NCBI GenBank assembly: GCA_047404195.1
Contig: JBDOIU010000008.1
Span: 65,105 to 129,104, forward strand
Direction: 5' to 3'
DNA from: Coxiellaceae bacterium
GTDB taxonomy: Bacteria; Pseudomonadota; Gammaproteobacteria; JAJRRL01
Length of the DNA: 64,000 nucleotides
A program made the position numbers. Numbering within the stretch: the first letter of the stretch is position 1; every line of letters begins with the position of its first letter. Positions 23,001 to 26,000 of this stretch are shown here, one piece after another.

Positions 23001-26000
23001 TATTCCTTGAATGATACGATTGTTGTATACGATCGTGTACGTGAAAATTTTCGCTTATGCCGTCAGTCAACACCCACAGAGGTCATGGACCGATCAATTA
23101 ATCAAACGCTTTCTCGTACCATCATGACTTCTGGTCTGACCTTGCTTGTTGTAATTGCCTTGCTTATCTTTGGTGGCGAGTACCTATTCGGGTTTGCTCT
23201 GACGCTTGCCATTGGTATCATCATTGGAACATATTCATCTATCTATATTGCTGGCTCATTGGCGATCAGCTTTGGTCTGACCCGGCAAAGCCTGATCAGT
23301 AGCGTGAAGCGTAAAACGCTTGACTAGTCCCTGTCGGGGCGAGCCCAAGTGTATTCTAGGTCGGGATGCTGATCGTGTTTGGGGCTCTTTGTGGCCTTGA
23401 TGGTGTTGGTGCCGCATGTTAAGTTAGAAACAAGCTTAGAATACGCGGGGGGCACATGGTTTCAAAATGGTTCGCGGCATTGTTGACTTTATTTTTTTCC
23501 ATGCAAGTCATGGCATTGGCGGTCGTGTTGCATAACGATCATGCCACCTCGCAACTTGCAGTGACGGGTTATGGTGATCTTGCGAGTGGTAAGAAGCATC
23601 TATTTCCTCTAACAACTAATGCGGTAGAAGCCTCATTCAGTGATCATGTTGGCGTTCATCGATTGAGCATATCATCAACACACCTAACGTGTTGCCAATA
23701 TCTCGGTTTTCTATCTGTGGGTGACTTTCAAAAGATTGTTTATGATGGCACACCGTATTATTTTTGTTATATCCCGCCTTCCGCTCTGATTCCATTATCT
23801 ATGCCACGGTTTTATGTGCATGTGCGGCCACTGACACAATCTCCGCGTATCATTGTCAGCGGTAAAGGCAATACATGTGGTCACAGCAGCAGCCGAATGC
23901 CACTCAATGTTGATGGGCAGCTTTCCTGGGATAAAGAATTATGGATTGGATAAAAAGGTGCAGCACAATGTATACTGTATTTAAAAAGGTATTTTTTTTC
24001 TGTCTATTTGCCTGCGTTACACAAGCACAGGCATGGGTTGTACAAACAACCATTGATAACCCGACGTATACCAGTCGGGATATTAAGATAGGTGGGATAC
24101 CTACTGGTGCCAGTCACTCCACTGTTCAGCTGCATCATAAAGCGACGACATTTGAATTGGGTGCTAATGCTACACCACTGACTATCTCGTTGGTGTTGTC
24201 ACCGTGCTGTATCGAGAAGCGATTTTTTCTACTGCCGAAGGGTTGGTGGGTCAAGATTGAATCTGCGGGTGTGACCAGCTACCTTTGCGCTTTGTCGTCT
24301 AATGTATTCCTGCCCCCCAAGCTTCACTTGCAAGTTGATTCTGTACAGACGGATTCATTCACATATCAATTCTCGAATCCGGATCACTATTGTCCAGACG
24401 AGCTTCGTAAAGCGAAGCACTCACCGCAAGGTGTTCATACATACTGGCGGTCGCTATCGTTCAATGCGCTTTCTGGAGATGTGATTGATGGGCGCTAGAA
24501 ATCGAATTTGGCTGTGGATTGTATGCTGTCTTGGTATTTTTCCTTGTGTGGTCTATCCAGCTGCGTATATTGATCTAACCGATAATACCTCGCAAAGATT
24601 AGACAGTCGCGTGACTGTTGCTGGTAGGCCACTCAATTTGATTTCAGAGCAAGAAATACCACTCACAACAGCTGATTTTCCCAAGCGTGGTGAGCATGTA
24701 AAAAATATTAGCTTTGAAACGGATGCTTTAAATATGGTATTGAGTGCTGTTGATACTCGCCATCCATGTGGAAAAGTGAGTGTTTTTGGTCATCCGCTCG
24801 CTTGGCGTTTTAAATTTGACGTGTTGTCGAACAGTATCTATTCATTTAAATCAGTAGAGTATCATACCGAATTATGTTTGCCCCAAACACCATTTGCAGT
24901 TTATATTCATATCACCGTATATGATTGTAAAGTCGTTATTGAGGGGCTTGAAGGCGCCGCCAATATACCTAAGCCGGTGACATTTCCACTGGCGTGCACA
25001 TCTGCAGGAGGCAGCATATGAGTACGAAGCATGTGCTTATGCTATGTATGTGTGTCATTTTACTGCTCATTATGCTGTGGCATATTGTTGGTTTTGTAAG
25101 GGCGGTACGACGCCATCAGCTCACACAAGCGCAGCGGCGTAAAGAGTATTTATGGTTAATGATATCTGGGGTATTAGTCGTTGTGCCCTGTGTCATGGTT
25201 ATTGTTGGCAGGCTATATCACTGACGTTCATGACCAATTGAGATTTCTTTTTGATACCGCGCCATTGTGTCTTTTAAGCCGTAAAATAGACAGTCAGCAA
25301 TAAACGCCTGGCCGATAGAGACTTCGTCTATACCAGGAATGCTGGCCAGAATGGCTAAGTTTTCCAAGCTGAGGTCATGCCCAGCATTCACGCCTAGGCC
25401 AAATGATAATGCATGCTGTACCAGCGTATGATAGGTTTTGGCTGTTTTTTCAATGTTCCCATGCGTGATTGCGCTGGCGAAATCACCTGTATAGATTTCA
25501 ATGCGATCTGTTCCTAGCTCACTGGCCGCCTGCATATCTTGCAAGCAGGGGTTAACAAACAAGCTGACACGTGTGCCCCATGATTGTATCTGTGCGATGA
25601 TTTTCTGCAGTTCGTCGCCATCAGCGTTAAAGTCCCAGCCATGTGTTGATGTCAGTTGCTGAATGCTATCAGGCACCAGAGTGGCTTGATCAGGTCGACA
25701 CTGTTCTACTAATGCCAAGTAGCCTGGGTAGTCACCTTTTGCGCCGTGAAAAGGGTTGCCTTCAATATTGAATTCGTGTGTGCCTGTTAAGTCACTGATT
25801 TGGCGCACATCGTCGGGTGTAATGTGTCGCATATCTGGACGCGGGTGTACAGTGAGCCCGTCTGCTTTGCATTCTAGTACGGCTTGTGCGAACGCAAGTA
25901 CGTCTGGGCAATTACCGCCTCTGGCGTTGCGAATGCAGGCCACTTTGTTCAAGTTGATGCTGAGATTAAGCATGCTGCCCCCAATGCTATACAAAAGCAG

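Follow-up and report, generated by a model that had tools for sequence, protein, structure and literature searches.

A secF-linked cluster of predicted exported proteins in a marine Coxiellales-like gammaproteobacterium

Organization of the locus

The window examined here, a 64,000-nucleotide (nt) stretch of contig JBDOIU010000008.1 from a Coxiellaceae bacterium (GenBank assembly GCA_047404195.1), includes four same-strand open reading frames (ORFs), termed g1 to g4, that occupy the gap between secF (22422-23327, +) and the convergent pdxJ (25218-25973, -). An earlier note on this DNA had described a compact, co-directional cluster of exported proteins between these two genes, and all four ORFs are present on the plus strand as claimed. 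The features of the locus are as follows.

18875..23327, plus strand: tgt-yajC-secD-secF, named from Pfam assignments; precedes the cluster in all four lineages in which the family is found
22422-23327, plus strand: secF, the upstream boundary; Pfam tags on an identical contig (L001) and on a related scaffold (L002)
23328..23455, plus strand: secF-g1 spacer of 128 nt, with a G-rich Shine-Dalgarno sequence (GGGGGG) at 23447-23452
23456-23953, plus strand: g1, 165 amino acids (aa), 18.2 kDa precursor; predicted exported protein and paralog of g2
23968-24498, plus strand: g2, 176 aa, 19.7 kDa precursor; the most widely conserved family member
24488 (ATG)-25021, plus strand: g3, 177 aa, 19.6 kDa; N-terminal hydrophobic segment
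25018-25224, plus strand: g4, 68 aa, 8.0 kDa, pI 10.4; predicted two-helix membrane protein
25218-25973, minus strand: pdxJ (PF03740 on the identical contig L001); the downstream boundary in the lineage of the window only

The genes of the cluster are tightly spaced, with Shine-Dalgarno sites conserved ahead of each of the four. At their junction g2 and g3 share 11 nt, while the g4 start and g3 stop codons overlap as ATGA (25018-25021), with AGGAGG (25006-25011) six nt upstream; this arrangement and the 7-bp convergent overlap of g4 with pdxJ had both been noticed before and are verified by coordinates. The earlier view that starts and stops overlap throughout is correct for g2/g3 and g3/g4 but not for g1/g2, which are separated by 14 nt when the likelier g2 start (23968) is used and overlap only from an alternative ATG at 23941 (185 aa, 20.8 kDa). 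The start at 23968 is the better supported, and that at 23941 the less likely, because the Shine-Dalgarno sequence of the former (AAGGTG) has a conserved counterpart in L002 (AAGGAG) and because the short n-region it provides matches that of distant homologs. An alternative TTG start of g3 at 24485 would yield a protein of 178 aa.

The secF-g1 spacer can be aligned with L002 and with a further fragment (L003), and no terminator-like hairpin was found in its 128 nt by a terminator scan. Read-through into the cluster from tgt-yajC-secD-secF is likely, as secF has no terminator after it. Promoter and terminator scans gave counts at chance level and yielded no operon boundaries.

Conservation and selection

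Proteins of identical sequence are encoded by a single NCBI genome contig of 131,853 bp and by the Logan assembly contig L001. A distinct relative is provided by the Tara metagenome scaffold L002, together with the fragment L003, with DNA ~85% identical to the window; in L002 the gene order is yajC-secD-secF-g1-g2-g3-g4-pdxJ and an N-gap interrupts g4 and pdxJ. Between the window and L002, the ratios of nonsynonymous to synonymous substitution (dN/dS, Nei-Gojobori) are 0.175 for g1, 0.185 for g2 and 0.159 for g3, with a value of 0.119 for g4 that covers the first 36 codons only, the remainder of the L002 copy being in the scaffold gap. The comparison genes yajC, secD and secF have ratios of 0.02-0.08 and the neighbouring epimerase gene 0.12. 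A third strain, known from a 675-nt contig only (L040), gives 0.22 for g2. The four ORFs are real genes under purifying selection (dN/dS 0.12-0.22), and this selection across three strains excludes the possibility that they are spurious, unconserved ORFs in a spacer. The GC content of the cluster is like that of its flanks; searches of its surroundings gave no repeats, tRNAs or Rfam elements, and no mobile-insertion signature was seen.

Export signals, topology and cysteine residues

The N-termini of g1, g2 and g3 all comprise an n-region with K/R residues and, after it, a hydrophobic core, in agreement with the signal-like starts described earlier for three of the proteins. Signal peptides were called by rules that require a positive n-region, an h-region of 7-15 residues and small residues at -3 and -1, with Pro barred from -3 to +1. 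By these rules, g1 has the predicted signal peptide MVSKWFAALLTLFFSMQVMALA, cleaved ahead of VV at the site MALA-V (ALA-V), and g2 has the predicted signal peptide MYTVFKKVFFFCLFACVTQAQA, cleaved ahead of W at TQAQA-W; both sites conform to the (-3,-1) rule, and the latter is the AQA-W site that had been pointed out before. The mature g1 protein would be ~143 aa (15.7 kDa) with four Cys residues (CC..C..C), and mature g2 would be 154 aa (17.1 kDa), also with four Cys. Signal-like n-, h- and c-regions are present in 10/10 family members, and (-3,-1) sites are found at residues 20-23 in g1, g2 and the proteins of two more distant lineages (L004 and L037, described below), the second-gene proteins of which carry SQA/AQA cleavage sites.

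The cleavage of g3 is less clear. While its n- and h-regions are present, a canonical (-3,-1) site for signal peptidase I was not found by the rule script, and the sole plausible site, YPAA-Y, has Pro at -3 in both strains. Because of this Pro, the N-terminus of g3 may be a signal anchor instead of a cleaved signal peptide. The g4 protein has hydrophobic helices at about residues 5-26 and 44-64, which flank a loop (RAVRRHQLTQAQRRKE) with six K/R residues; based on this charged central loop, g4 is predicted to form a hairpin of N-out/C-out topology.

Four Cys residues are found in every mature family protein, including g3, in which all four follow residue 26, and two are invariant across all 10 sequences. 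Such a content is as expected of proteins that are oxidised outside the cytoplasm. Two other types of exported protein were rejected: type IV pilins, as the N-termini do not have a class III leader (Gly, then F/M, with Glu at +5), and lipoproteins (lipobox L-[AS]-[GA]-C), as the LFAC of the g2 signal is not kept in L002 (LLAS).

Distribution and synteny of the family

Homologs of the cluster proteins are rare among the 5.8 billion proteins and 1.84 billion cluster representatives covered by the protein searches. The g1 search of the 5.8 billion proteins retrieved two, as did an alignment-based search with g3. A full HMMER pass of g2 through the 1.84 billion cluster representatives retrieved three: the L002 ortholog, P0011 (E 1e-5; encoded in L037, which is identical to L038 and L039) and P0012 (E 1e-3; encoded in L004). 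A search with the 10-sequence alignment (A7) retrieved only g2 and g3 of L002, a 94% variant of g2 (P0006), g3 of the window and the second-gene protein of L004, and a scan of JGI metagenome contigs returned the single locus L039.

The family is, thus, known from four lineages only and is located directly 3' of secF in each. In L004 and L037, a g2 homolog is the first gene after secF (with a gap of 24 nt in L004) and is followed by a gene for a 156-aa signal-peptide protein and then by coxB-coxA-ctaG-ctaA, with coxB 141-162 nt after the second gene and no terminator detected between them. No counterpart of g1, g4 or pdxJ was found at these two loci, and at the other 28 Coxiellales/Legionellales loci no homolog follows secF, where suhB/trmJ-type genes are found instead. 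In the synteny check proposed in the earlier note, the full cluster is kept in L002 and a two-gene version is kept after secF in L004 and L037. The position behind secF, and not the downstream neighbour, marks the family. Both g4 and the adjoining pdxJ belong to the lineage of the window only. Downstream of the cox operon in L037 (13937-16263, +), there are four consecutive genes for proteins of 151, 151, 229 and 210 aa that have no Pfam match.

Relationships and evolutionary rate

The g1 and g2 genes are tandem paralogs by profile comparison. Aligned with hhalign over 124 columns (P=0.002), the two have all four Cys residues in register, and g2-type profiles score g1 above 9,991-9,999 of 10,000 shuffled decoys, while the g1 profile scores the L004 protein above all shuffled decoys. 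Among 2,085 six-frame segments, g1 and g2 are reciprocal best non-self hidden Markov model matches. The relationship of g3 to this pair is only suggestive. Like g1 and g2, g3 and the second-gene proteins of L004 and L037 have a comparable length, a signal-like N-terminus and four Cys residues, and near the first Cys a colinear motif is weakly shared. HMMER does not match g3 or the L004/L037 second gene to g1/g2. The g3 protein may be a divergent family member.

The family proteins are constrained, yet diverge several-fold faster than their housekeeping neighbours. Between the window and L004/L037, SecF is 71-73% identical, while g2 is 29-33% identical and g3 is 19-27% identical to the second-gene protein. 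Between L004 and L037, the identities are 80% for SecF, 42% for the g2-type protein and 34% for the second-gene protein.

Domain and structure searches

Pfam has no family for g1 or g2 at E<=1, and g3 has only two weak sub-threshold matches (DUF7378, E 0.007 over 21 residues, and DUF2914, 0.03); g4 has generic transmembrane matches only, and in Pfam scans of the 10 family members nothing rose above threshold. No match to NCBIfam was found for g1, g2 or g3, and the match of g4 to the NCBIfam YajC model (E 0.008, 16 bits compared to a 129-bit cut-off) represents generic transmembrane similarity. The cluster proteins have no match in PADLOC, and in PHROGs only g4 is matched, at E 0.07. A profile search of PDB sequences gave no match below E 0.8.

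An AlphaFold (AF2) model of g2, built from 10 sequences, is all-beta with ~10 strands (pLDDT 65.6, pTM 0.60) and its beta domain is preceded by an N-terminal tail of ~25 residues modelled with low confidence, whereas the g3 model, built from 2 sequences, is unusable (pLDDT 30). The Foldseek matches of the g2 model to PDB are no better than E 0.8 and TM 0.23, with no known fold matched. Of the folds named in the earlier note (pilin, SCPU and lipocalin), none was found for the g2 model by Foldseek. The lipocalin suggestion also finds no Pfam match, and the iLBP/FABP barrels among the Foldseek matches have a probability of <=0.08 and TM of <=0.22. No chaperone, usher, toxin or secretion-system genes were found near the cluster, nor were chaperone or usher genes found among the large ORFs of the window or in the neighbourhoods of L002, L004 and L037.

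Proposed role of the cluster

The favoured reading, which is given a probability of roughly 0.5, is that g1 to g4 form a taxonomically restricted, fast-evolving set of Sec-exported, disulfide-bonded proteins of the envelope or host interface, appended to tgt-yajC-secDF. The assignment to the envelope/host interface is a judgement from the export signals, predicted disulfides, tandem duplication, fast divergence and intracellular-type genome, with the numerous secreted hypothetical proteins of Coxiella burnetii that depend on Sec (PMC3882888) as a precedent. The identity of ~30% where SecF keeps 72% would fit proteins that face a host or environment over those of a core housekeeping role.

By this proposal, the cluster would be transcribed by read-through from secF, and translation would begin at a separate Shine-Dalgarno site for each gene, the ATGA overlap coupling g3 and g4 at the translational level. 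The g1 and g2 precursors would be exported by Sec and processed by signal peptidase I, g1 after ALA and g2 after AQA, and then oxidised in the periplasm to form two disulfides, each protein folding as an all-beta domain of about 16-17 kDa behind a flexible tail of ~25 residues. The g3 protein would stay tethered to the inner membrane via its uncleaved N-terminal helix and may pair in the membrane with the g4 hairpin, an idea in keeping with the occurrence of cleavable second-gene proteins in L004 and L037, where g4 is missing. The g1 and g2 proteins could then join g3 on the periplasmic side or be released to the outer envelope or host vacuole.

Several points weigh against this envelope/host-interface proposal. 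The signal peptides were called by a script with simple von Heijne-type rules rather than by SignalP, and the only grounds for co-transcription with secDF are the spacing and the missing terminator. The pairing of g3 with g4 is a correlation across only two lineage groups, and the hhalign comparisons of g3 to g1/g2 are not significant, as the real score is reached in 4/150, 10/150 and 13/150 of the column shuffles. For g2, the model is of no more than moderate confidence, matches no known fold and does not indicate an activity, and the proteins may instead have a purely periplasmic housekeeping role.

Alternative explanations

A plausible reading, which overlaps the favoured one but is itself held at a low probability, is that g1 to g3 are host-directed factors, such as binders or inhibitors of host proteins, that are released via a type II-like route or outer-membrane vesicles, with g4 unrelated or regulatory. 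The Sec signals, small disulfide-rich domains, rapid divergence and tandem duplication are consistent with release, as is a context suggestive of an intracellular lifestyle (Coxiellaceae/Legionellales relatives and giant kinase-domain proteins). A precedent is provided by Coxiella burnetii, which releases many small Sec-signal-dependent proteins, 27 in all (Stead et al. 2013, PMC3882888). Like the window proteins, these secreted hypotheticals are small with classical signals, many are domainless, and Sec forms the first step; they differ in that no sequence homology is detected and the window genes are a paralog array behind secF with a two-helix membrane partner. Secretion-system genes are not found nearby, and some degree of retention in the envelope, at least, is favoured both by the close coupling with a membrane protein and by the anchor-like start of g3. 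Similarity to known inhibitors or effectors was likewise not found by Pfam or Foldseek. Ecotin and the lysozyme inhibitors PliC/PliI/PliG are host-facing defensive binders in the envelopes of Gram-negative bacteria and, as analogies only, resemble the window proteins in size (~15 kDa), Sec signal, beta-rich fold and stabilisation by disulfides. The window proteins have no Pfam match, by contrast, and the only PliI structure among the Foldseek matches is at E 2.2 and TM 0.15-0.19; membership in these families is not indicated. An unlikely role is that of SecDF-linked accessory factors, such as lineage-specific chaperones or holdases, acting at the periplasmic face of YajC-SecDF and kept behind secF by that function. 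The location immediately 3' of secF in all four lineages, despite ~30% identity and a differing downstream flank, speaks for this role, together with the 24-nt gap in L004, the lack of a detected terminator after secF and the weak match of g4 to the YajC model, which is far below threshold. Core translocon partners normally evolve slowly, whereas this family evolves fast, the YajC match is of the generic transmembrane type, and the 28 other Coxiellales/Legionellales loci do without a homolog after secF. Slightly more doubtful still is a periplasmic add-on of YajC-SecDF that evolved in the marine Coxiellales clade, in which the beta proteins and a lineage-specific membrane hairpin would work with SecDF to aid protein export or the folding of envelope and secreted proteins; if true, it would explain why the genes stayed at secF while their sequences and downstream neighbours changed.

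The remaining explanations are given far less credence. A role in cytochrome c oxidase or copper biogenesis, in which the proteins would aid assembly of the aa3 oxidase, is very unlikely even though secF, the two family genes and coxB are consecutive in L004 and L037 and the CC motif and two further Cys residues are conserved. The cluster of the window and L002 lineage does not adjoin cox genes, and the invariant residues of the family are Cys and core aromatics, with no His or Met conserved. The copper chaperones PCuAC and Sco are comparable as small exported proteins with conserved Cys residues, encoded here beside coxBA in two of four lineages; the family differs in having no conserved His/Met, no CxxxC motif and no Pfam match to PCuAC, Sco or CopC-type families. 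Similarly improbable is a fimbria-like polymer, in which a disordered N-terminal donor strand would complete the beta-sandwich of a neighbouring subunit. The presence of several paralogous secreted beta proteins of ~16 kDa, with a low-confidence ~25-residue tail ahead of the modelled domain of g2, recalls the subunits of chaperone-usher/SCPU (Csu-type) systems, which are paralogous, secreted, all-beta proteins of about 15-17 kDa encoded side by side and for which an N-terminal flexible segment is a possible parallel. The window cluster differs in its disulfide pattern, which is unlike that of known pilins, and has no chaperone or usher gene in the cluster or the 64-kb window, no Fimbrial/SCPU Pfam match at E<=1 in any of the 10 members and no type IV pilin leader; the sole pilin match (7oa8, probability 0.07, TM 0.22) is meaningless. 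The surface-structure (pilin/SCPU) suggestion of the earlier note, thus, finds no Pfam, fold, chaperone or usher support. Its other suggestion, a toxin-immunity or defence module, can be all but dismissed along with spurious spacer ORFs: while these are small, overlapping genes that lack annotation, one of them for a tiny membrane protein, no toxin domain is found by Pfam or NCBIfam, PADLOC has no match and PHROGs only that of g4. Modules of this kind usually lie in a mobile or variable context, whereas here the GC content is flank-like, repeats and mobile-element signatures are lacking and chromosomal synteny is stable.

Host organism and other features of the window

The host is taken, from its SecF matches and gene content, to be an uncultured marine Coxiellales-like gammaproteobacterium. 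Among species-representative genomes, SecF matches are from Coxiellaceae/Coxiellales/Legionellales only, the best being 72% identical and encoded by the metagenome-assembled genome L004, which originates from a Southwest Indian Ridge vent metagenome (PMC9769843). The remainder of the window is ordinary chromosome and includes lon, pmbA, mnmA, tgt, gltA, sdh, minCD, lexA and lnt.

Two giant ORFs of the window, at 7553-17560 (+; 3335 aa) and 45442-52317 (+; 2291 aa), each encode a protein with a Ser/Thr/Tyr kinase domain of eukaryotic type at its C-terminus (PF07714, E ~1e-53). The rest of each protein has no Pfam match apart from HEAT/Arm repeats, which are also present in the second (45442-52317). 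Both are candidates for eukaryote-like effectors such as an intracellular bacterium might have, and would be consistent with an intracellular, Legionellales-like lifestyle.

The YajC protein (20017-20505, +; 162 aa) has ~60 extra N-terminal residues composed of a signal-like segment and an Ala/Thr/Gln-rich stretch. This extension is common to L002, while the tblastn matches of distant relatives begin at residue 53-92. Between pdxJ and the epimerase gene there is an ORF (26062-26337, +) for a hydrophobic protein of 91 aa that is matched neither by Pfam nor, with tblastn, in L002, the DNA alignment of which breaks at this point; the ORF may encode a strain-specific small membrane protein or be spurious. 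A 779-aa ORF (54630-56969, -) joins a CBS/CorC_HlyC region (aa 21-272) to apolipoprotein N-acyltransferase Lnt (aa 290-738). The corC and lnt genes are usually separate neighbours, and this ORF may be a fusion or may reflect an upstream start taken by the mechanical ORF list. No Pfam match was found at the thresholds used for ORFs at 38593-40815 (+; 740 aa), 3446-4267 (+; 273 aa) and 4341-5189 (-; 282 aa), and the genome seems to be rich in orphan proteins.

Significance for the Coxiellales

The cluster is best described, from sequence comparisons, as a new orphan family outside Pfam that is of an ordinary kind, namely the lineage-restricted, putatively exported proteins of a host-associated relative of the Legionellales. 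With no cultured organism or fold match, its description represents a modest gain in annotation rather than a mechanistic advance. Within the Coxiellales, an order of largely intracellular bacteria, the family is restricted to one small marine branch, and lineage-specific exported proteins of this order often mediate host contact. The one notable feature of the family is its persistent attachment to secF, and this fixed place makes the family simple to recognise and ties it to protein export in a way that can be tested.

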